Shown here: positions 3,089 to 14,961 of the stretch, one piece after another
Position numbering within the stretch: the first letter of the stretch is position 1
How the letters are laid out: the number at the start of each line of letters is the position of its first letter
Virus record (IMG/VR): IMGVR_UViG_3300024992_000003
Source of the DNA: a virus
Length of the DNA: 14,961 nucleotides
Strand: one strand, 5' to 3'
Notes under the pieces: model-generated
Told to the model about the DNA's origin: nothing
The model's input: only the letters and a program-made list of their open reading frames with translations
The model's database searches: none
Position numbers and translations under genes: made by a program

Positions 3089-3700
3089 TCATGAGGCGCT
3101 TCTCGACGCTTCGTCGATCTCCCGGCGAAGTTTCTCCATCCGGGCGAGCCTCGCGGCGTCCAACGGCTCCCGCCCCTGCCTCACGCCGACTTCCGTCCCC
3201 TGGTATGCCGGGTACGTCACCGGGGAGACGTCGAATAGGTCCAGGTCCATCACGTCCCGCTCGATCAGGCGGCGGTTCGTCCCGCGATCCATCGAGCGCG
3301 TGACCGCCTGGCCGCCGGGTCGGATCCTGAACCCGAAGGACGACCCAGTGACGTCGCGCCGGCGGATGAAGATGAGGCAGTCTCGGCCGATGGTGGTGTC
3401 CGACATGTCGACTTCGTAGGCCAGGCCGTGCGAGTCGACCGTAAGCCGGCAGGTCCCGGAGAGCGTCCGGCCCAGCAGCAATCTCGGGTCGTGGTTGAAC
3501 AGGGCCCGGACGTCCTGGCGCTCGCGGATGGCCCTCGCGAACGCCCCGGGCCGGATGCGCTCCCGGATGACGACGTGGGCGTCCTCGTACAGCGTCGTCC
3601 ATTGGTCGAAGACGGCCGCATAGCCGCGGATGACCGGGGGCGCCCCCCCCGAATCCCGCAAGCCCACCGGCCCCGATACGTCTCGATACTCGATGCTCAT
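3089..3700 (-). CDS. HK97-family prohead (capsid maturation) protease, peptidase S78
   Basis: 203 aa with GYAAVF, PGAF, LFNHD (His), LLGRT, GLAYEV, DVTGSSFGF (Ser) and FDVSPVTYPAYQGT, in the order typical of PF04586. Confidence 0.9.
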   Translation of the reverse strand: MSIEYRDVSGPVGLRDSGGAPPVIRGYAAVFDQWTTLYEDAHVVIRERIRPGAFARAIRERQDVRALFNHDPRLLLGRTLSGTCRLTVDSHGLAYEVDMSDTTIGRDCLIFIRRRDVTGSSFGFRIRPGGQAVTRSMDRGTNRRLIERDVMDLDLFDVSPVTYPAYQGTEVGVRQGREPLDAARLARMEKLRREIDEASRSAS

Positions 3701-3762
3701 GGTGCCACCCAGGGGGGGGGAGACGTCCCCGCCCTATTTCGCGGGGACGGGGGCGTCGAAGT

Positions 3763-3999
3763 TCAGACTGAAGCTGCGAACTCCCGACCCGAACGGTAGG
3801 GCCGCGGGGACGTCACGCCGCGGACGTCGTCCGCCCCGGCGACGACTTCGACGGCCCCCGACTCCAACAGGATCTTGGCTTCGACGGGATGGGCGTCGAA
3901 CTCCGTCCCTTTGCGGATCTGGATGAAGTTGCCGTCCCTGAACCCCTGGCGGACGGCTTCGGCGTCCAATACTCGGACCCTTACAGTTTTCGTGTTCAT
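3763..3999 (-). CDS. Hypothetical 78-aa protein carrying one copy of the module repeated in the two upstream paralogues
   Basis: Good third-position GC. FIQIRKGTEFDAHPVEAKILLESGAVEV resembles the KGEV..(V/L)PE...LL segments of 4072-4596 and 4644-5147. Weak SD. Confidence 0.55.
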   Translation of the reverse strand: MNTKTVRVRVLDAEAVRQGFRDGNFIQIRKGTEFDAHPVEAKILLESGAVEVVAGADDVRGVTSPRPYRSGREFAASV

Positions 4000-4026
4000 G
4001 ATTTACTAGCTCTATGCGTCGTCGTG

Positions 4027-4060
4027 AAAGAAAACCCCCGCCGACGTCGGTCGGCGGGGG
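4027..4060 (-). terminator. Rho-independent terminator after the capsid operon
   Basis: Perfect 11-bp stem cccccgccgac / gtcggcggggg (4035-4045, 4050-4060) with a 4-nt loop, followed on the - strand by TTTTCTTT (4027-4034). It lies 12 nt after the stop at 4072. Confidence 0.7.
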
Positions 4061-4071
4061 CGTGGATCGGG

Positions 4072-4596
4072 TCAGGAGTGGTAATTGACGTCGAACGTCA
4101 CGTCCGCGACCATGGCGCGGAGCGTCTCCGGAGGCAGGGTGAATTCGGCCCCCGGGGCGATATTGAACCGGGCATGGACCGGACTTTGGAGCAATCCCCA
4201 AACCACGTCTTCCGGAAGCTCCTGAACCTCGCCTTTCATCAGGATCCGATGGCCGACGCAGGCGTCGTCCTCCGTGCCGATGACTTTGATCTTGGGAATG
4301 ACGCCCAGCTTCCCCACGGGCTCGTCGTAGTACCCGTGACCTCGGCTGCGCAAGAGGATGCTCCCCATCCGCGTGAGCTTGAACGAGTCGATTTCGACCA
4401 TCCCGTTCCAGCACATCTCTCGGATGGCGTCCCGCTCGCAGAGCGAAATCGTCTGGCCTTTCTTCACGGCCTTGCCGCCGATCGCCCCGTCTTGGACGAC
4501 CTTGACGCTGATCCGCGGGCCCTCGAATTCATCCGGCCCTTCGATCGTGCCGTCCGAGTGAAAGAAGCGCTCGATGACTTTGACGGTGGCAGACAT
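4072..4596 (-). CDS. Capsid-cluster protein, paralogue B (174 aa), unknown function
   Basis: ATG at 4596 preceded by GGAGA (cacGGAGAattgatATG). Shares ERDA, KGEV..(V/L)PE and FTL blocks with 4644-5147. Confidence 0.75.
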   Translation of the reverse strand: MSATVKVIERFFHSDGTIEGPDEFEGPRISVKVVQDGAIGGKAVKKGQTISLCERDAIREMCWNGMVEIDSFKLTRMGSILLRSRGHGYYDEPVGKLGVIPKIKVIGTEDDACVGHRILMKGEVQELPEDVVWGLLQSPVHARFNIAPGAEFTLPPETLRAMVADVTFDVNYHS

Positions 4597-4643
4597 ATCA
4601 ATTCTCCGTGATTCGATTTCTTGGCGTCCCCGGCTCGTCGGGG

Positions 4644-5147
4644 TTAGAAGACGTTGAAGGCGTCGAGCTTCGGGTCCGTCCACGCCGCTTCCAACTCCCG
4701 GGACGAGAGCGTGAAGCCCCCCGCCGTCTCCAGGTCGGGGCTGTTGAATCGGTGCCGTCTGAGGAGCACGTAGGCCACCCTCTCCGGCACCTGGACGACT
4801 TCGCCCTTCGTCATCAAGCGGTTGGCGCACATGACGCCGTCCCGCTTGGCGACCATCAGGACGACCGGCCCGGATTCGTCTTTGGGGCCGGCTATGACGT
4901 AGGGCCGGGACCCCTCGCCCGCCAGGTAATCGAGGCCCTGGGGGCTCAACTCGCCCGGCCGGACCTCCACCGTCCCGACGATCGAAGCGTCCACGGCGTC
5001 GCGCTCGCGGAGGTAGACGGGGGCCCCCGCCGGCCAGGCGACGCCCGACCCGTCGGCGACGACGCCCGCCCTGAGGATCTTGACCAGGACGAACGGGCCG
5101 CGAGACGCGGCCGTGCCGCCCCCCCGCCCTCCTTCCGGATTGCTCAT
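4644..5147 (-). CDS. Capsid-cluster protein, paralogue A (167 aa), unknown function
   Basis: ATG at 5147 lies 26 nt after the MCP stop. The long upstream extension in the ORF track (to 5873) overlaps the MCP gene and is an Arg/Gly-rich artefact. Confidence 0.75.
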   Translation of the reverse strand: MSNPEGGRGGGTAASRGPFVLVKILRAGVVADGSGVAWPAGAPVYLRERDAVDASIVGTVEVRPGELSPQGLDYLAGEGSRPYVIAGPKDESGPVVLMVAKRDGVMCANRLMTKGEVVQVPERVAYVLLRRHRFNSPDLETAGGFTLSSRELEAAWTDPKLDAFNVF

Positions 5148-5173
5148 CGATGCGTCCCCGTCGCGGATGGTGT

Positions 5174-6328
5174 TCAGCCGGTGGCGACGTCGCCGACGAC
5201 GCCGAAGCTGAGCAGGTGCAGGAACGCGACGTCGACGTCCTGGAACGCGGAGACCTGGATCACGCCGTCCGTCGACTGCCTGTAGGGGTCCACCAGCAAG
5301 TCCACCGGCGTGAACAGGTTCACGACGCAATCCCGCCAGTTGCCGAACAGCAGCGGCGACAGGTTCGTCCCGCTCCCCTTCGCCAGATTGCTCGGGACGT
5401 TCGTGGTGGCGTAGGCCGGTTTCCCGACGACTCGCTCGAAGTCCGACCAGAGCCAATTCGACCCGTCGGCGATCGTCCGCATCTTCGCCCGGACGTTCGG
5501 CGAGCCGATCCAGCCCATCGAGACGTCCGCCGGCGCGTCGCCGTTGGCCGCCCCGACCAGCCGTTCCAACTCGACCAATGCGGCCCGCGTCGCGGGGCCG
5601 CCGTTCGCCCCGATCGCCACGGAGTTGACGCCCCCCGTGTTCAACAGGCCCGTCGGCTTCCCGACGCCGTCGCCGACCAGGCCGACGCGATCGATCTCGA
5701 CGCCGATGCCGGTCGCGATGTCGGCCAGGACGCGACGCTCGTGGTCGCGCTCGAAGGCCGATTTCAGCAGCCTCCTCGTGACGGCCACCTTCGCCGACAC
5801 CGTCTTCGGCGTCAGCGTCACGGCGTCGGTCGTCGGGTTCGCCTCCGGGGCGCCCGCCCCCTCGGCCGTCCAACCCACCGCCGCCGCCGTCCCACGGCGA
5901 GGGAGCTTCACCTTGCCGCCCTGATCGCGGGGGAGCGACAGGACCCGAGCCCCCAGGCTCCCCAGGACGGTCCGGGCTCGCAAGGCGTCGACGACCCCGA
6001 GGTCCGGCACGACGGTTCTGACCGCCCCCGCCCCGGTCGTCGAATCCAGGGCCCGTTCCTCCGACTCCGCATCCCCCAGGACCGGGACCCAGAACCCCCG
6101 GGGGGAGCGGTTCGGGTGTCGCCTACGAAGCTCAGAGTCGACCTCCCCTTCCAGGCCGTCCACTCTCCCCGGAGGCCGCCCGGCCTTGCTGGCGCTCTCG
6201 ATCGCCCGGAGAAGCGAATATCGATGCCTGCCGTTCCTCGTATTCCCGGGGTCCTGATGCGGAAGAGGGCCCCAGGAACGACCCTCGACCGCCGTACCGT
6301 AGAACTCGCCGAAACTCAACGTCGCCAT
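5174..6328 (-). CDS. HK97-fold major capsid protein (384 aa)
   Basis: Layout typical of HK97-family MCPs (PF05065/TIGR01554): N-terminal YSLLRAIE...GLEGEVDSEL...SPRGFWVPV, central TPKTVSAKVAVTRRLL, GLLNTGGVN, C-terminal PLLFGNW...DGVIQVSAFQDVDV. Start set at MATLSF (ATG 6328, AAGGGA upstream). Confidence 0.92.
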   Translation of the reverse strand: MATLSFGEFYGTAVEGRSWGPLPHQDPGNTRNGRHRYSLLRAIESASKAGRPPGRVDGLEGEVDSELRRRHPNRSPRGFWVPVLGDAESEERALDSTTGAGAVRTVVPDLGVVDALRARTVLGSLGARVLSLPRDQGGKVKLPRRGTAAAVGWTAEGAGAPEANPTTDAVTLTPKTVSAKVAVTRRLLKSAFERDHERRVLADIATGIGVEIDRVGLVGDGVGKPTGLLNTGGVNSVAIGANGGPATRAALVELERLVGAANGDAPADVSMGWIGSPNVRAKMRTIADGSNWLWSDFERVVGKPAYATTNVPSNLAKGSGTNLSPLLFGNWRDCVVNLFTPVDLLVDPYRQSTDGVIQVSAFQDVDVAFLHLLSFGVVGDVATG

Positions 6329-6475
6329 GCTGCTTTCCCTTGATGCTGAACCTTTGATGAAACCGCGCGCGGCGTCGCCCACGGCCCTGGAAGGCCCGTG
6401 GAAGCGTCCGCGAGACGCACCGCTCCGTTTACTCGCCCCTTCTCCGGAAGCCCCGTGCAGGGCCTCCCAGGGGGA

Positions 6476-6859: not shown

Positions 6860-6887
6860 ATAATAGCCACCGCCCAGAACTTTGCAA
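6860..6887 (-). promoter_or_regulatory. Candidate promoter of the HTH-capsid operon (TTGCAA-16 nt-TATTAT on the - strand)
   Basis: -35 at 6887-6882, -10 at 6865-6860, inside the AT-rich island 6860-7010. Confidence 0.3.
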
Positions 6888-7008
6888 ACAGTTTCTCAAA
6901 AGCACGATTTGATCTATGAATTAATATGAATTGTACATTGAATCACAAAAGACGACAGCAATATGACTTGCGTATTCCACGTCAATAGGGAACCCCGGCA
7001 AACCGGCG

Positions 7009-7141: not shown

Positions 7142-7308
7142 CGTCCTATCCTCCCCCCGACCCCCTCGGGGGCCACCCATGCGGGCGTGTCGTCAATGAT
7201 CCAAATCGCCCGGAAAAAAAACTCGGCATTTCACACGCGCGGGGAAAACGTCGGTGAGGGGCCTTCGATCCCCCAGCGAATCCGACCCCTACCCCCCTGG
7301 GGACTTCG

Positions 7309-7560: not shown

Positions 7561-7782
7561 TCACTCTCCCGCGGGAGGCCGGACCACGGCCCCGATGGCG
7601 AAGAACAACGCCTCTTCCAGCTTCCCGACCGCAAGGGACTGCTCACGGTTGGGAGGCGTTGCGTCGACGACGACCCTGGCCGCCCTCTTGATGGCCTCGC
7701 GAATCTCATCACACCGGTTGCCGTCCGCCTGCGTGGCCGGACGATGCAGGTCGAAACGACGGTTGATCTCGCACGCTTTCAT
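7561..7782 (-). CDS. Hypothetical 73-aa phage-like protein
   Basis: Clean coding bias. SLAVGKLEEALFFAIGA resembles the ...LEEA.MWA helix seen in many small phage proteins (recollection only). Confidence 0.6.
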   Translation of the reverse strand: MKACEINRRFDLHRPATQADGNRCDEIREAIKRAARVVVDATPPNREQSLAVGKLEEALFFAIGAVVRPPAGE

Positions 7783-7788
7783 GGTCTC

Positions 7789-7905
7789 TCACATCCCCTT
7801 CCCACGCTTGATCCCCTCGCGTTCCGGCCCCGCGACGATGAGGCAGGCCAGGACGACGACCGCGAGGGTGGCGAATCGGCCCAACATGACGAGAAATGCA
7901 ATCAT
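7789..7905 (-). CDS. Possible 38-aa membrane peptide (MIAFLVMLGRFATLAVVVLACLIVAGPEREGIKRGKGM)
   Basis: Its start overlaps the stop of the upstream gene as ATGA (translational coupling); one hydrophobic helix. Confidence 0.4.
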   Translation of the reverse strand: MIAFLVMLGRFATLAVVVLACLIVAGPEREGIKRGKGM

Positions 7906-8162
7906 GTGGATCGATTCTCCAATTTGCGGACTTCGTCGGGCGAGAACCGTCTCGCTATGACCTTCGCGGCGGCTTCACGCGAGCCGAGGAAGCAAGCCCG
8001 ACGGAGTGCCGTTTGAAGCTCCGCATTCATCGAGTGCAGGCCCCTGAGATAGTCCGCCCGGGCTTGCTCGATGTTGCTGAACTTGGCCTGATTAGACGTG
8101 ACGCTCGCCCCTTCCGGGAGCAACGCGGCCGTCTCGACGTTTGATGCGATGCGTGCGTCCAT
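7902..8162 (-). CDS. Hypothetical 86-aa protein
   Basis: AGGA 7 nt upstream of the ATG; coding-like codon bias; no motif recognised. Confidence 0.6.
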   Translation of the reverse strand: MDARIASNVETAALLPEGASVTSNQAKFSNIEQARADYLRGLHSMNAELQTALRRACFLGSREAAAKVIARRFSPDEVRKLENRST

Positions 8163-8171
8163 GGGCGATCC

Positions 8172-8329
8172 TGATGAAGGTGATGAAGGTGATGAAGGTC
8201 AAGCTCTTAATTAATTTAGAAATGAGATTGGTGAGGGTTATGTACAGGAGGCGGTGTACATACGCTGGGAGAACCGCAATAGTGAGTAATCCCTAGAGCG
8301 ACCCTTCATCACCTTCATCACCTTCATCA
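8172..8329. repeat. Two 27-bp arrays of the 9-mer TGATGAAGG (x3 each) in perfect inverted orientation, flanking a 104-bp AT-rich spacer
   Basis: 8172-8198 = (tgatgaagg)x3 and 8303-8329 = (ccttcatca)x3. The spacer holds ttaattaa (8207-8214) and two tgtaca sites. Confidence 0.95.
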
Positions 8330-8638
8330 CCCCCGTTTCCGCCTCCGAAGCTCTTCCAACGTGTGGCATTGCTTGCATAGCGACACGAGGTTATCCAGGT
8401 CCAACGCCAAATCCTGCCGGGTCGCCCTCGGCTCAACGTGATGCACGTCCACGGCGGCCGTCGTCTCGTCCCGGGCCGCACAGTGCTCGCACACGGGGTC
8501 CCTGGCCAGTTTGACGGCCCTAACGCCCTTCCAGCGTGCCGACGAGTAGAAACGCCACGCCTCTTGCCGTGCGGCCTTCGTAGGGGCCTTCCTGGGCTTC
8601 CCCGCGGCCGTCGAACGATAGGGGATGAGCCTCGCCAT
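8327..8638 (-). CDS. HNH endonuclease (phage packaging-associated type), 103 aa
   Basis: CEHC...VDVHHVEP...LDNLVSLCKQCH zinc-finger/HNH motif preceded by FYSSARWKGVRAVKLARDP, as in HK97-like phage HNH proteins. Start at ATG 8638 is tentative (alternative ATG at 8776). Confidence 0.85.
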   Translation of the reverse strand: MARLIPYRSTAAGKPRKAPTKAARQEAWRFYSSARWKGVRAVKLARDPVCEHCAARDETTAAVDVHHVEPRATRQDLALDLDNLVSLCKQCHTLEELRRRKRG

Positions 8639-9386
8639 CAGCCGAGCAGCCAACGGGCGATGAGGAAGCCGATCAACGCCCCTAGCATGAACCCGATCGA
8701 CTCGCCCACGGCCGCGGTTGCCCGGTGCGACTGGGTCGGTAGCGGCCTTCGCTCGACACGGTATCGAGCCGGCCATCCGCCCCCCTGGTTTGCTGCATCG
8801 TGGGGCCGAATCCGACCCGCGATCCAAGTTGGATGACGCTCATCCCGAATGCGCTGGCGACGGGATCATACCCCGGGTATGGCCGCGCTGAAGCCGGTTG
8901 CATCCACCGGACACGCCTGTAGTTCAGACAAGCTCTAGCGGCCCTGGGCGAGTCGCCCATGGCCGCTCTGTGGGGGGGCCTGGAGACCAGATCATTCCCC
9001 GGGAATCAGGTCCGTCATGCGCCGCTCATGACAGGCTCCATGCGCACCTTATGACGGACCTTTCCGACCCCATGCTCGGGCGTCCGGCCGACGAACTTGC
9101 CCCGGTCGACCACTGCTCGCTTCGCCGCGAGCGTCCCGCAGGTCCAATTGATCCAGGCGGGCCGCGTAGCAGGCCCCTCAGATCCCCCCTGGGAGGCCGA
9201 CGACTGCGTCCCCAGGGAGAACGCCCGCCCGCCTCATCGTCGCGTCTCAGCGGCTTCTAGAGGCCCCTACGGATCCGCCCCCGCGTGGCCTCCCAGGGGT
9301 GTGGCTTCGAAACGCGACGGGCGTCGCCGGGCCCTTCGACCCGCGACGCCTGCGCGAGGCTTCGCTTCCCTGGGAACCCGGGGCCG

Positions 9387-10354: not shown

Positions 10355-11365
10355 ATGATCGGCGTACGCGCTCAGGAAGTCAACCCGGACCCCCGCTCGG
10401 CTCCCCGTCAAATCTCCTTCGCCTTCCGGGCCGATCCCCTGGCCTTGGATGAAATGAAGCTCCCCAGGACGGCGCGCGACGTCTTCGGGCTTGTCCTGGA
10501 CAACGCCCGCCTCCGCGGCGGCCGCTGCCGGCTGTCCAACGGGACCATGGCCCGCATCCTGGGATGCTGCGCCATGACGATCGGCCGCGCCCTGGTCGCC
10601 CTCGAAGCCGCCGGCCTGGTCCGTCGCGAATTGAGCCACGGCGGCCGGATCCGCTCCGGCATCCTGGTGACCTGGGATGGGGTTCAACAGGGATGTTTAA
10701 CTGAACGTCCGTGCGTTCAACAGGAACGTGGAAGGGGTTCAACACCGGCGTTGAAGGGGGTTCAACAGCCGTGTGGCACTAACCAGAGCCCCCATCAGAG
10801 CGTGGACCAGACGGGCCCGATCCTCTCCTCTCAGGGGGGGGAAGACGATCCGGAAGCCGCCGCCCTGTTCGCAACCCTCGGCCCGGCCGCGTTCCTGCGG
10901 GCCATGATCGCCAAGGGTCGCGAGGAAGTCGCCGCCCGGTCGGCCGGGAAACCGGCCCCCTCCCCCGCACCGGCGGAACCCGCCAGGGCTTCCCAGGACG
11001 AGCCGGCGGCCCCGGCCCCGCCGATCCCCGCCCCGGTCGCCGATCGCCCCGCCACGGCCAAGCCAGGGGCCTTCCCCGAGACGCCTCGGCGCGTGGAGTC
11101 CCGCCCGACGTCTCGGACGGTCGTCCAGTCGCCTTCGATGTCCGCCCCCAAGCCTTCGGCCGCCCCGAACGCGCCACGCAGCTACTCCCCCGCCCCGGCG
11201 GTCCCGCCGGACGACGTCATGGCGATGGTGGCCCGGATGACGCGAGGGCTCGCCGAGGGGTTGAAGGCCGAGAACCTGGGACGTCGTCGAGTCGGGCCGA
11301 AGCGACTGGCCCAGCAGCTCGCTGAGGTCCGGAGACGGCACGGACGGGCGGATCGCCGGGATTGA
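10355..11365 (+). CDS. Putative replication initiator: N-terminal winged-helix domain, long Pro/Ala-rich linker, basic C-terminus (336 aa)
   Basis: LSNGTMARILGCCAMTIGRALVALEAAGLVRRE wHTH; iteron-like repeats inside the ORF; located immediately upstream of parA. Function is inferred, not recognised by a family motif. Confidence 0.6.
   Translation: MIGVRAQEVNPDPRSAPRQISFAFRADPLALDEMKLPRTARDVFGLVLDNARLRGGRCRLSNGTMARILGCCAMTIGRALVALEAAGLVRRELSHGGRIRSGILVTWDGVQQGCLTERPCVQQERGRGSTPALKGVQQPCGTNQSPHQSVDQTGPILSSQGGEDDPEAAALFATLGPAAFLRAMIAKGREEVAARSAGKPAPSPAPAEPARASQDEPAAPAPPIPAPVADRPATAKPGAFPETPRRVESRPTSRTVVQSPSMSAPKPSAAPNAPRSYSPAPAVPPDDVMAMVARMTRGLAEGLKAENLGRRRVGPKRLAQQLAEVRRRHGRADRRD
10679..10769 (+). 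repeat. Iteron-like direct repeats (G)GGGTTCAACA(G/C)(G/C) x4 inside the rep-like ORF
   Basis: GTTCAACA starts at 10682, 10715, 10737 and 10760 (spacings 33, 22, 23 nt, about multiples of 11). Degenerate or inverted copies: gtttaac at 10694-10700 and gttgaa at 10750-10755. Confidence 0.6.
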
Positions 11366-11511: not shown

Positions 11512-12126
11512 ATTATCGTCACGGTCGCCAGTTTCAAGGGAGGCGTCGGCAAGACGACGACCGCCGTCCACCTGGCCGCGTATCTCCGCAAGCTCGACAC
11601 GACCGTCCTAATCGACGGCGATCCCAACCGCTCGTCCACGGCCTGGTCGGCGCGGGGCTCCCTGCCCTTCGACGTCGCCGACGAAGCGATGACGGCGAAG
11701 GTGGCGAGGGCCTACGAGCATCTCGTGTTCGACACGGCCGCCCGCCCCGACCCCGACGTCTTGCGGGTCCTGGCGGACGGATGCGACATGCTCGTCATCC
11801 CCACTACGGCGGACGGCCTGTCGTTCGACGCGCTCATGCTGACGGTCGCCGCGCTCAAGAAGATCGACGCGATGAAGTATCGAATCCTGGTCACGATGGC
11901 CCCGCCGAAGCCGGCCCGGGATGGAGAGATCGCCCGAGACGCTTTGGCCTCCCAAGGGCTCCCCGTCTTCGACGCTACGGTCCGGAACCTGAAAGCGTTC
12001 AAGGTCGCCGGGACTCAGGGCGTCATCGTTTCGGACGTCCGCGATCCCCGCGCGAATCTCGGATGGTGGGATTACGTCGCTGTGGGCGATGAACTGAGGG
12101 GCTACGTCGAGGGCGGGACGCGATGA
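11512..12126 (+). CDS. parA: ParA/Soj-family partition ATPase (about 204 aa); apparent non-canonical ATT (or ATC) start
   Basis: IIVTVASFKGGVGKTTTAVHLAAYL (deviant Walker A), VLIDGDPN, HLVFDTAA (Walker B-like), MLVIPTTAD. The frame is open from 11386 but has no ATG/GTG/TTG before the Walker A. SD GGGGAGGG lies 4 nt before ATT 11512. Confidence 0.85.
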   Translation: MIVTVASFKGGVGKTTTAVHLAAYLRKLDTTVLIDGDPNRSSTAWSARGSLPFDVADEAMTAKVARAYEHLVFDTAARPDPDVLRVLADGCDMLVIPTTADGLSFDALMLTVAALKKIDAMKYRILVTMAPPKPARDGEIARDALASQGLPVFDATVRNLKAFKVAGTQGVIVSDVRDPRANLGWWDYVAVGDELRGYVEGGTR

Positions 12127-12434
12127 GCAAGAAATTCGACCCGGCCGCGTCGCTCAAGAACATCCTGGACGCGAAGCGTGGGAAGGAAACCATCTCTGAG
12201 GAGTCCGCCCCTCTTCAGGCCCCTCCCCCCTCCCCTGCCCCGGTGGAGTCGCCCCCAGCTCCCAAGGGGAGAGGCGGCAAGAGCAGCGATCCAAAGTACG
12301 TTCAATGCTCGGTTTATCTCCTCAGGACCACGCGAAAGCGTGTGAATCGAGCCTTGGACGACGAAGACGCAGGCCGCGATTTCAGTGAGCTCGTGGAAAC
12401 CCTTCTCAATCAATGGCTTGAGTCGAGTACCTGA
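12123..12434 (+). CDS. ParG-like ribbon-helix-helix centromere-binding protein candidate (103 aa)
   Basis: ATGA overlap with the parA stop; disordered Pro-rich N-terminus, then KYVQCSVYLLRTTRKRVNRALDDEDAGRDFSELVETLLNQWLE (RHH pattern). Confidence 0.7.
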   Translation: MSKKFDPAASLKNILDAKRGKETISEESAPLQAPPPSPAPVESPPAPKGRGGKSSDPKYVQCSVYLLRTTRKRVNRALDDEDAGRDFSELVETLLNQWLESST

Positions 12435-12525
12435 GTACCTAGGCATCGGAAGACGAAAGTATCGGGCTTGTTAGGTATCTAAGTGGCTAGGTATATAGGT
12501 ACTTGATAGGCTGCTTAGGTTAAAG
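12425..12525. repeat. Cluster of short repeats: GAGTACCT x2 in tandem, then six TAGG(T/C)(A/T) hexamers; candidate parS centromere
   Basis: gagtacct at 12425 and 12433. TAGG starts at 12440, 12472, 12488, 12496, 12507 and 12516 (three are exact TAGGTA). Related AGGTA/TACCT copies occur upstream of parA. Confidence 0.45.
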
Positions 12526-12621
12526 CTGATATCTGCTTTTACCGATTATGCGCAAAGGCGATATGGAGGATGACAGGCAAAACGGCAAAGCGTTTTGCAG
12601 GCGAAACCGGAATACGTACAA

Positions 12622-12891
12622 ATGAACGAAGCAGCGAAGCCATCCAGCGGCAAATTGCGAAAGCGGCAAAGCGGCAAGCCCGAAAGCCGGCCAGCATCAT
12701 CGAAGGTTAAAGCTACGATACATCTGAGCATCGAGGCCGATCAACGCTTAAACATTCACTGTGCGATGATGCGGAAGGATCGATCCGAGTTGATCGAAGA
12801 ACTCATCAACACGCATCTTCGCCGGTATGTCGTGTCGGACCGTGGAGGAGGAGAGCAGGGGGCCGGGGACGATGAAACTCCTGCGGACTGA
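12622..12891 (+). CDS. Second RHH-like small DNA-binding protein (89 aa)
   Basis: KVKATIHLSIEADQRLNIHCAMMRKDRSELIEELINTHLRRYVV parallels the RHH core of 12123-12434. Lower third-position GC than its neighbours; no clear SD; start uncertain (TTG 12595 or ATG 12622). Confidence 0.5.
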   Translation: MNEAAKPSSGKLRKRQSGKPESRPASSKVKATIHLSIEADQRLNIHCAMMRKDRSELIEELINTHLRRYVVSDRGGGEQGAGDDETPAD

Positions 12892-13009
12892 CTCCAGCCG
12901 CATGGGCGGGCCAGGGGCAGCGGGGTTCCGTAGGACGTGGGATGTGCTCGCCGGGCGAAGCGGTTTTGACTCTAATAGAGTCAGTCGAGTTCCCAGGGAG
13001 GTAGGCCCT

Positions 13010-13435
13010 ATGTACCATCGAACTATGGCTACAACCCTCAAATCCCCAAACTTCGCTGCTTGGCTGGACAAGGCGGTCGCCATCATGCCCCCGGACCTCG
13101 TCGAGGAACTGCACGTCTACGCGATGGCGCAAATGCGAGAACAGGCCCGTTCCCGCCGCCGGAGCCGACCCCGCAAGCGGAAGTTCCGGGTGGCGTCCAG
13201 CGTCCATACGGCATCCTTCCCGATTCGCCGGCCGACCCTGAATCCCTACGCCTATGCACTCGCGAAGGCCATGGAAGCCAAGGTCGAGGCACGTTTCGCC
13301 AGGGCCGCCCGGCCGCTCCCCGACGAACCTCGTTTCAACGAAGAAACCATGCAGGCCATCCGCGACACCGAGGCCGGGATAGGGGTCTCACGGTACAAGG
13401 ATGCCGCTGAGATGTTCGCCGACATGGGCCTTTGA
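13010..13435 (+). CDS. Type II antitoxin candidate (141 aa), RelB/DinJ-like C-terminal toxin-binding segment
   Basis: GGGAGG SD before ATG 13010. C-terminal FNEETMQAIRDTEAGIGVSRYKDAAEMFADMGL resembles the antitoxin tail commonly paired with YafQ/RelE toxins. Stop is 3 nt before the toxin start. Confidence 0.65.
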   Translation: MYHRTMATTLKSPNFAAWLDKAVAIMPPDLVEELHVYAMAQMREQARSRRRSRPRKRKFRVASSVHTASFPIRRPTLNPYAYALAKAMEAKVEARFARAARPLPDEPRFNEETMQAIRDTEAGIGVSRYKDAAEMFADMGL

Positions 13436-13438
13436 CGC

Positions 13439-13792
13439 ATGCCTGACAAGCGGCGATCGAAGGCGAAACGCAAATCGCGGCCGAAGGCCGAAGCGCCTCC
13501 CGTCCCCGAGGCACCCCGCGCCGACTTGACGGTCGTACCGGGAAGCCGATTCAAGCGTGACCTGGAGCGAATGAAGGCGCGGGGCAAAGACCTGAACAAG
13601 ATCGCGGCAGTGATCGACGCCCTTAAGGCCCATCGCCCCCTAGCGGCCAAACACGTCGATCATGGGCTGACGGGCAACCTGGAAGGGTATCGGGACTGCC
13701 ATGTCGAGCCGGATTGGGTGTTGATCTACAAACGCACCGCCGACCAGCTGCTGCTCTTCAGGACCGGAACCCACTCCGACCTGGACCTCTAG
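13439..13792 (+). CDS. yafQ: YafQ-family (RelE/ParE superfamily) type II toxin, mRNA interferase, with a ~27-aa basic N-terminal extension
   Basis: FKRDLERMKARGKDLNKI...L...HVDHGLTGNLEGYRDCHVEPDWVLIYKR..DQLLLFRTGTHSDL matches the YafQ consensus layout. Confidence 0.85.
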   Translation: MPDKRRSKAKRKSRPKAEAPPVPEAPRADLTVVPGSRFKRDLERMKARGKDLNKIAAVIDALKAHRPLAAKHVDHGLTGNLEGYRDCHVEPDWVLIYKRTADQLLLFRTGTHSDLDL

Positions 13793-13862
13793 GCTCGCCG
13801 CCTGCCAGCGTTATCGCCTGTCCGCCCGAATTCTCGCGAGGGTTGGGCAAGGGCGGGAGAGG

Positions 13863-14171
13863 TCAAAAGCCCCCGTACCTCGGCAGGCCGAGGGCCTTTC
13901 TCACGTTGCCGAGGATGGTCCCGAGATACCCTTGAAGCTCGACATAGGTCGCCTGGGCTTCGATGGCGCGGGACGGGATCGTCTTGGGCCATTGGAAGGG
14001 TTGCAGGTCCGGGACCGCCTTCTCCGCGACCTCCAGAAGTTCGTTGTACCGATCGATGAAATGGCGGCTGGCGTTCTTCACCAGATCTTTGACCGGCACC
14101 GGCCGCAGGGCGTTGGTCAGTTCAAGAATCGCCGCCTCGATCGCCCTGAGCGTTTCGTCCTCAGGTTTCAT
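13863..14171 (-). CDS. Hypothetical helical 102-aa protein
   Basis: ATG 14171 preceded by GGAGGG (cggaacGGAGGGttgagATG); coding-like codon bias; no motif recognised. Confidence 0.6.
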   Translation of the reverse strand: MKPEDETLRAIEAAILELTNALRPVPVKDLVKNASRHFIDRYNELLEVAEKAVPDLQPFQWPKTIPSRAIEAQATYVELQGYLGTILGNVRKALGLPRYGGF

Positions 14172-14638
14172 CTCAACCCTCCGTTCCGTGAAACATGCGT
14201 GGAACGCGGGGCCGATTCTCGCTGTCGCCATGCACGCGGTCAACCGGGCGATCGTCCCTCGACGATGAGGGCGAAAGCGAACCACGGGTCAGCATTCGGC
14301 CCGGTCGCCGATGCTCGCTGGAACGCTCAGGCGGAATTCAGGGCAAGATTCCTGGAATCTCCTGTAAGAAGCCTTAGAGCGTCCTATTTCCTAGATGGCG
14401 GCCCTAGACGCCACCTTCCGCGGCTTTCCCAGAAGCCGCTACGCTGTCAGGCAAGTCAAATAGCAGGGGTCGCATAATCGGCCGGATTCAACGTCTCTGA
14501 CGCCTGCGCCTGACGCGTCTGCCGGAGATGGGCCACTTTCGCGCCTCCTTGATCGTTTGGCGCGCGCATCCTTAGCAAGGCGAGGAATCGAGAGAGACTC
14601 AAGTCTCCTCGATCAAACGTCGATAATTAGCTGGGGGT

Positions 14639-14834: not shown

Positions 14835-14961
14835 CCCCGCCGCCGACGCGTGTTCGTCGACGGGAAGGGCTTCCCAGGGGCCTGTCCGCCCCTGGGAAGC
14901 CGGTGATAGGACCCCCAACGCCCGCCAGGCGAAAGGAACCCCAACGATGAATTCTACATCC
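14835..14961. repeat. Second copy of the terminal direct repeat (= 1-127)
   Basis: Identical to 1-127, including the start of the 113-331 ORF. Confidence 0.95.

Follow-up and report, generated by a model that had tools for sequence, protein, structure and literature searches.

The inverted 9-mer cassette and its element

The viral record IMGVR_UViG_3300024992_000003 of IMG/VR comprises 14,961 nucleotides (nt), and this whole stretch is termed the window here. Between its gene for an HNH endonuclease and a gene for an orphan protein of 86 amino acids (aa) lies a 158-bp cassette, made of two inverted arrays of a 9-mer and the spacer that they enclose, whose possible role as an origin of replication is the subject of this work. 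The window begins and ends with the same 127 nt (1–127 and 14835–14961), which marks a circular (or terminally redundant) contig, and the window is therefore a complete circle of 14,834 bp. On the minus strand the circle encodes a small membrane peptide, the HNH protein, the 86-aa orphan, a 38-aa membrane peptide, a protein resembling the Acb2/Tad1 hairpin family, a small helix-turn-helix (HTH) protein, an HK97-type major capsid protein and an S78 prohead protease. The plus strand encodes a ribbon-helix-helix (RHH)-like protein of 69 aa, a 336-aa Rep-like protein (with a weak match to phrog_270) and a YafQ/RelE toxin. Terminase, portal, primase and helicase genes were not found among the genes of the window, the longest open reading frame (ORF) of which is that of the capsid protein (402 aa), and no tail or integrase gene was noted in the circle besides the capsid and protease genes. 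None of the ORFs tested matched a primase or helicase family, and a Walker A motif is present in no real ORF of the circle. The features on which the following sections draw are these:

8303–8329, minus strand: upstream iteron array in the sense of the genes, reading (GGTGATGAA)x3 on the minus strand, with the unit RGGTG plus N4 and a 9-bp period
8172–8198, minus strand: downstream iteron array, exact reverse complement of the upstream array and opposite in direction
8199–8302, no strand: spacer of 104 nt and low GC, the proposed unwinding region
8241–8260, no strand: central motif TGTACA-N8-TGTACA, kept as TGTWCA-N8-TGTWCA-TA(A)CC in all seven variants of the family
8254–8265, no strand: alternating purine-pyrimidine tract of 12 nt (GTGTACATACGC)
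8203–8222, no strand: AT-richest part of the spacer, beside the downstream array, containing TTAATTAA
8148–8359, no strand: exchangeable cassette, comprising the arrays, the spacer, the last ~9 codons of the HNH gene and the ribosome-binding site of the next gene
8327–8638, minus strand: HNH endonuclease gene of the terminase-associated type, 103 aa from the ATG at 8638, adjoining the cassette and not co-varying with it
7902–8162, minus strand: 86-aa gene directly downstream of the cassette, with the N-terminal 42 aa conserved and a variable C-terminus
10675–10778, plus strand: the element's own iteron cluster, 4 x GGGGTTCAACA, within the Rep-like gene (10355–11365)

A sequence-only reading of the window had described the arrays as perfect inverted repeats, which they are: (TGATGAAGG)x3 at 8172–8198 faces its exact reverse complement, (CCTTCATCA)x3, at 8303–8329, with 27 of the 27 positions of the arms complementary and 104 nt between them. 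That reading also placed correctly the stop codon of the HNH gene (TGA, minus strand, 8329–8327), whose three bases form the outer end of the right array, the start codon (ATG) at 8162 of the minus-strand gene that follows (separated from the left array by 9 nt) and, in the spacer, TTAATTAA at 8207–8214 and TGTACA at 8241–8246 and 8255–8260. Its description of the spacer as the most AT-rich DNA of the window has to be corrected, as four other segments of 104 nt are lower in GC and the spacer (GC 0.44 vs 0.64 for the window) ranks fifth. The lowest of these segments, at 6876–6979 (GC 0.33), lies upstream of the string of genes from HTH to capsid and is probably a promoter region. The TGTACA pair is centered exactly on the midpoint of the spacer, at 8250.5.

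The 9-mer has six exact copies in the window, none of them outside the two arrays; with one mismatch or fewer allowed there are nine matches, where 2.5 are expected, and the runner-up among perfect inverted repeats of the window measures 17 nt. The region recurs identically in 23 independently assembled contigs (JGI, ENA and Logan), and the sequence is therefore no artefact of assembly. One contig of 1.7x coverage (L208, positions 120–320; fetched contigs and loci carry L-numbers) has a T-to-G change in the third unit of the upstream array (GGGGATGAA), which is either a sequencing error or the sole microvariant among the 23. Near-identical DNA was absent from plasmid and phage collections, and the 27-mer retrieved from IMG/VR only low-GC coding repeats, mostly of giant viruses, that lack a second arm.

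Exchange and co-variation of the arrays

Two versions of the cassette reside in one and the same element. Contigs L201 (12.1 kb) and L203 (9.4 kb and free of Ns) represent the element of the window with another cassette (allele B, AGGTGTCAC), in which the iteron arrays read GGTGTCAC in place of the GGTGATGAA of allele A. Outside positions 8148–8359 they differ from the window by one 17-nt indel and a handful of single-nucleotide polymorphisms, and are about 99.9% identical to it. Allele A is present in 23 of the fetched contigs and allele B in four, and apart from the cassette the two kinds of element match each other over at least 82% of the circle, the part that the allele-B contigs cover. 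Since the alleles occupy an otherwise equal background, the 336-aa Rep-like, RHH, 132-aa, HNH, 86-aa, HTH, capsid and protease genes do not co-vary with the repeat. The 86-aa protein is 100% identical between the two and is thus not what sets the specificity of the repeat.

Mosaic relatives lead to the same result. L039 equals the window for ~330 nt inside the HNH gene and again for ~350 nt from the downstream ATG, and between these stretches holds ~200 nt that are unrelated to the window and identical to L042. Conversely, L034 has the cassette of the window behind upstream genes that are 99–100% identical to the genes ahead of the other cassette in L042. Together with L201 and L203, these mosaics rule out that specificity is set by the HNH, 86-aa, 132-aa or upstream genes. 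Whatever reads the repeat must be encoded elsewhere or in the 2.7 kb of the circle that allele-B contigs do not reach.

The element does appear to have an initiator and origin of its own, at a separate site. Its Rep-like gene contains the cluster of four GGGGTTCAACA listed above, and the corresponding gene of L016, the Rep of which is 66% identical, has 4 x GGGGTGGATCA at the same place; the element's own pair of initiator and origin therefore probably sits inside rep. Judged from these sequences, the internal cluster at 10675–10778 is likely the cognate origin of the 336-aa Rep, in the layout known from lambda O. Binding of this Rep to the cassette is ruled out, since the iterons that co-vary with it lie inside its gene and bear no relation to the units of the cassette.

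Homologues of the HNH and 86-aa proteins, followed by a pattern built from the invariant columns, led us to a family of seven cassette variants (the window, L015, L016, L019, L020, L039/L042 and L043), each of them in the interval from the HNH stop codon to the ATG that follows. Every variant presents two inverted 9-mer arrays with a 9-bp period and an RGGTG core, a spacer of 104–113 nt and the central TGTWCA-N8-TGTWCA-TA(A)CC. What differs is N4: ATGA in the window, GTCC in L015, AAGC in L016, TGTC in L019, TCAC in L039/L042, GCAC or GAAC in L020 and AAGG in L043. Both arms change together, with double changes at 22 aligned arm positions among six sequences. Between the window and L043, 98 of 104 positions of the spacer are identical (94%) and only 38 of 54 in the arrays (70%; Fisher p = 1e-4), and the same two substitutions appear in the units of the L043 upstream array and in its single intact downstream unit. 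The arrays thus evolve rapidly and in concert while the spacer is conserved; from the alignments, this is the pattern that would be expected of an iteron that determines specificity. No conserved fold was found in the spacer interior of the family. In L016 (3181–3528) and L020 (264–632) the HNH frame continues through the upstream array, adding C-terminal tails of (GEA)n and (GTG)n, respectively, so the array is sometimes translated, into a peptide that is not conserved.

Several other explanations of the cassette were set aside. The spacer has the same orientation in all 27 contigs of alleles A and B and no recombinase was found, which speaks against an inverton. The ends of a transposon or of a miniature inverted-repeat transposable element are disfavored by the constancy of the site while the repeat sequence changes, and by the lack of a second copy in the window. 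No Rfam covariance model matched at gathering or permissive thresholds and no tRNA was found, which leaves no known RNA family. Chi sites and G-quadruplexes, as readings of the G-rich units, fail on the invariant TG after GG, on the N4 common to both arms and on the association with primase-helicase genes described below. A small ORF in the spacer, as read from the sequences, is open in type-A spacers and its frame is not kept in type B.

Sites of the same design and the proposed function of the cassette

IMG/VR was scanned for inverted arrays of three GGTG-N5 units 80–115 nt apart, with the same N5 required in all units of both arms and no use of the central motif of the family. The scan returned ~27 non-redundant loci in unrelated viral contigs of 41–68% GC, where well under one is expected by chance. 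The dominant neighbor in this wider class is a primase-helicase gene that ends just before the arrays, in at least 12 of the ~27 loci. The cassette begins 0–160 nt after the stop codon of a Toprim/DUF5906 gene in L075, L183, L186 and L187, of a Prim-Pol gene in L087, L190, L192 and L196, of a Toprim_3/DUF927 gene in L097 and L177, and of a DUF3987 gene in L130; in L078 a DUF5906 gene lies ~700 nt away. An alternating purine-pyrimidine tract near the center of the spacer reaches significance in 10 of the 33 spacers from the family and wider class, that of the window included. These tracts measure 12–29 nt, for example (GC)n and CGTATGTA, and were noted in L107, L110, L075, L087, L174, L176, L177 and at 8254–8265 of the window, being very strong in L107 and L110; they may ease melting, adopt the Z-DNA form or provide a site of priming.

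Some iterons are shared with phage-like contigs. L107 (gp3/Sf6-type small terminase TerS, large terminase TerL, HNH; GC 0.66) shares a 20-nt stretch of the allele-B iterons, in a cluster of ~9 copies located roughly 5 kb from TerS/TerL. L110, part of a 50-kb viral contig, has the 9-mer of L015 together with the adjoining spacer motif TAAGAAATCAC. Two exact coincidences of N5 among 91 comparisons correspond to P ~0.004. A further locus, L123, is a relative of the head module of the window (protease 50% identical, capsid-then-protease order, HNH gene) and presents opposed sets of GGGTGAC iterons upstream of HNH-TerL; a fragment of an ORF upstream of these was suspected to be the C-terminus of an initiator and could not be identified as such.

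This design resembles two characterised types of satellite origin. The origins of Staphylococcus aureus pathogenicity islands (SaPIs) comprise 6–12 short iterons that follow directly on rep and are divided equally between the two sides of an AT-rich center, with at least two per side in opposite orientation; their specificity differs between islands, and they are bound by the C-terminal winged helix of Rep, apparently as two hexamers (PMC9371898; PMC7581432). The Rep of SaPIs and of phage-inducible chromosomal islands (PICIs) is a self-loading helicase (Ubeda et al. 2007 and 2012, as summarised in PMC9371898 and PMC7581432). The cassette likewise has six short iterons, three and three, opposed around a low-GC center, in a layout kept in seven family variants, and the iteron sequence differs between related elements, while sites of the wider class lie immediately 3' of the initiator gene. 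It departs from SaPIs in its 9-bp units with a constant GGTG core (5–6 bp in SaPIs), in the lack of a cognate helicase in the element and in the two alleles within one backbone.

The second type is that of P4, itself a satellite. In its record (NC_001609) the annotated type-1 ori repeats, TGTTCACC, that is, GGTGAACA, stand in tandem with a period of 9–11 bp and point in either direction around AT-rich DNA, and crr lies directly 3' of the gene for the alpha primase-helicase. The GGTG(A) core is common to both, whereas the remaining bases differ (GGTGATGAA in the window vs GGTGAACA in P4). P4 further differs in encoding its own initiator, in its less symmetric iterons and in the units of crr, which face the opposite way relative to the center. 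Alpha has no sequence similarity to anything in the window: a tblastn search of the window with alpha, with 15 initiators (primase-helicases) of the wider class and with their C-termini found none. Iteron plasmids and lambda O find their counterpart in the iteron cluster of the Rep-like gene, four units whose sequence changes along with Rep in L016; this is a separate site, and its iterons (GGGGTTCAACA) do not match those of the cassette.

We favor, at a probability of about one half, the reading that the cassette is an orphan iteron origin like those of P4 and SaPIs, at which an initiator helicase supplied in trans starts replication. The two opposed sets of three 9-bp iterons (core RGGTG, variable N4) would flank an unwinding region of ~104 bp. 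As in the characterised systems, a self-loading initiator helicase would bind the iterons through its C-terminal winged-helix domains, and two hexamers, one per side, would assemble and then melt the center. The GGTG core and the 9-bp period may reflect the binding mode of one family of initiator DNA-binding domains, N4 would set which helper is used, and exchange of the whole cassette would change this specificity. A co-infecting helper phage would provide the initiator and so amplify, on its arrival, a capsid-encoding element devoid of terminase. Supply in trans is proposed because the circle lacks a primase or helicase and because its Rep-like protein has separate cognate iterons. As no such initiator is encoded and nothing co-varies with the iteron, the protein would be encoded by a different replicon, for which a helper phage is the most plausible candidate, and the existence of two interchangeable versions of the site likewise suggests that it is probably a helper-phage protein that uses it. 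We thus infer protein binding, origin activity and the helper as the source of the initiator. The sequence-only reading had named a cos/pac site, an origin and a centromere as candidates and had preferred the first; of these, the origin, in its iteron-type form, is favored over the preferred cos/pac site by the recurrence of the architecture and by the primase-helicase neighbors. Its suggestion that a helper-encoded protein acts here if the element is a satellite holds in spirit, in that no gene of the element matches the specificity of the repeat.

A number of observations weigh against this origin. The cassette follows an HNH gene and has no initiator gene next to it, and so lacks the positional feature that defines SaPI and P4 origins; nor was an initiator DNA-binding domain that co-varies with the iterons, as in a SaPI-type origin, seen in the part of the element that allele-B contigs cover. 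With a GC of 0.44 the spacer is no more than moderately AT-rich, and it has a strongly conserved central motif that is not described for such origins. Some five members of the wider class, L068 and L123 among them, have terminase or portal genes on their other flank. The iteron of the window (GGTGATGAA) occurs in this arrangement in no IMG/VR contig, so that collection offers no candidate helper, the ORFs flanking the L107 and L110 sites are not recognisable as initiators, and the family pattern is absent from 185,579 GTDB representative genomes. Finally, positions 11,701–14,446 (~18% of the circle) lie outside the allele-B contigs, and a small co-varying DNA-binding gene may sit there.

With a capsid protein and a protease of its own but without a terminase, the element must rely on foreign machinery for packaging, which brings up a packaging site. 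The arrays would then bind the small terminase of a helper, assisted by the HNH protein of the element, with cutting at TGTACA-N8-TGTACA, and exchange of the cassette would switch the packaging helper. In the pac site of phage P1, hexamer clusters flank the position of the cut. The HNH protein is of the terminase-associated type, its stop codon adjoins the site in all family members, and in this, as in its satellite size and its capsid and protease genes, the element is reminiscent of HK97-like cos sites and of cos-type or capsid-forming PICIs. A site in cis that is read by a helper would account equally for the lack of a co-varying gene and for repeats common to phage contigs, the exactly centered and partly symmetric motif would suit a staggered cut, and L068 and L123 lie near terminase genes. 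We nevertheless consider a packaging site unlikely, though still viable. The dominant neighbors in the wider class are replication genes, namely the primase-helicases of at least 12 of 27 loci, and terminase genes, where present, are on the far side. The L107 site stands some 5 kb from TerS/TerL, and that of L123 is upstream of HNH, not between HNH and TerL. The sequence-only reading had invoked the cos of HK97-like phages, between HNH and terS; the HNH gene does adjoin the site, but the 86-aa gene is not recognisable as TerS (no match in Pfam, PHROG, PADLOC or PDB; an AlphaFold model with a pLDDT of only 60), and neither terS nor terL is present in the element. No termini are known, and none of ~30 contigs ends inside the cassette, a weak argument since assemblies usually read through cos.

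Three further readings each explain part of the data and fail on linkage, periodicity or missing partners. Ending 9 nt before a start codon, the downstream array would cover the 5' untranslated region or promoter-proximal DNA, and TAAGAR/TAATTT plus TTGA/CTGA elements are kept just before it in all family spacers; with the arrays ~113 bp apart from center to center, a distance suited to a loop, a repressor supplied in trans could bind both and silence, until the helper arrives, a spacer promoter for the 86-aa, Acb2-like and capsid genes. Such transcriptional control is improbable in our judgment: a repressor and its operator are normally linked, yet no gene of the element co-varies with the arrays, the position of the class at the 3' ends of primase-helicase genes is left unexplained, and neither a sigma-70-like promoter nor a terminator was found, although the host may use a different consensus. 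Still less probable is a hairpin in which the arms pair in the transcript from HNH to the 86-aa gene (a stem for RNase III processing or translational control) or in single-stranded DNA, so that only complementarity matters. The 22 compensatory pair changes in six sequences, a fold z-score of -8.3 and the arm mismatch of L019, which would be G-U in the sense RNA, are what it would predict, and a cassette that is complete in itself could be swapped freely with no partner gene. Pairing, however, requires neither the 9-nt period nor an invariant GGTG in each unit; most units of one arm in L016 and L043 contain non-wobble mismatches, the loop has no conserved structure inside it, Rfam yields no match even at permissive settings, and identical repeats in unrelated phage contigs are unexpected for a purely structural stem. 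As for a centromere, the arrangement of short tandem repeats as two blocks on either side of a core is reminiscent of R1 parC and of omega-type sites; a small centromere-binding protein on the arrays and a partition NTPase would form the complex, with arrays diversifying to avoid incompatibility. Candidates for the two would be the RHH-like protein of 69 aa and the product of an ORF that weakly matches a ParA-like PHROG. At 145 aa, however, that ORF aligns with no more than the C-terminal portion of the profile, the RHH gene does not differ between the elements of alleles A and B, and the circle contains no Walker-type partition NTPase and, in its covered part, nothing that co-varies with the repeat; we regard this third proposal of the sequence-only reading as very improbable.

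Other features of the element and significance

The HNH protein matches Pfam HNH and phrog_144, and its closest solved structure is 5H0M, the terminase-associated HNH of Geobacillus virus E2 (E = 5e-12). The Acb2/Tad1 hairpin domain (Pfam E = 1.4e-10) is that of a 73-aa protein encoded at 7561–7782 on the minus strand, of a family of anti-CBASS and anti-Thoeris sponges; this protein is ~70% identical in all relatives that have the cassette module. The YafQ/RelE-family toxin gene lies at 13439–13792 on the plus strand (Pfam E = 1.8e-29), preceded by a small ORF that is likely its antitoxin (a faint RHH_1 match in the gene table of L202); the two are consistent with plasmid-like maintenance. In the head genes (3089–6382, minus strand) the capsid gene comes before that of the prohead protease, with ~1.4 kb of unassigned coding sequence between them and no portal gene, and the same unusual order is seen in L123 (3421–5221), which has TerL too.

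Two stretches that appear to be non-coding are conserved in relatives that otherwise diverge, 7216–7302 (97.7% identity in L042) and 9238–9385 (79–81% in L042, L040 and L016), for both of which a permissive Rfam scan gave no match. A gene-free stretch of 600 nt upstream of the HNH operon contains a 23-nt imperfect palindrome at 9008–9061 (AGGTCCGTCATGCGCCGCTCATG / CATGCGCACCTTATGACGGACCT, 8-nt loop), and a 30-nt tandem duplication (2543–2603; 2.0 copies, 93% identical) is found at the 3' end of the ORF at 2124–2609. The relative L042, a contig of 38.5 kb (Ga0207420_1000477), combines the module of HNH, cassette, 86-aa and Acb2 genes with a type I CRISPR-Cas system (Cas7, Cas5, Cas1, Cas2 and Cas4; L042 165–9640). 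The CRISPR array contains a 37-nt repeat, GTCGGCGAGGTCGTTCCACCACAACAAGGATTGAAAC, in 42 copies; the repeat is absent from the GTDB representative genomes, and the spacers gave only chance-length matches to the fetched elements. In the search for a host, Cas1 and the capsid protein retrieved matches of 30–40% identity only; an early idea of a haloarchaeal host was not supported.

The element also needs a helper for its terminase, portal and tails. A wider proposal, which we advance tentatively and hold to be more doubtful than probable, is that a plasmid-like satellite that encodes a capsid and lacks a helicase carries a copy of the iteron origin of its helper, is amplified on infection by the self-loading initiator of that helper and changes helpers by a swap of a 200-bp cassette. 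The phage satellites that, to our knowledge, replicate on their own carry their initiator beside the origin. An origin without an initiator and with exchangeable alleles would show that satellites or plasmids tap the initiator of a helper directly and are retargeted by cassette exchange. If this is true, origin mimicry with modular specificity would be a general strategy of hijacking, visible in viral metagenomes as a class of origins with a GGTG core. The signature of opposed GGTG-N5 arrays ~100 nt apart finds candidate origins beside primase-helicase genes in many uncultured viruses, and could serve to pair satellites with their helpers in metagenomes.

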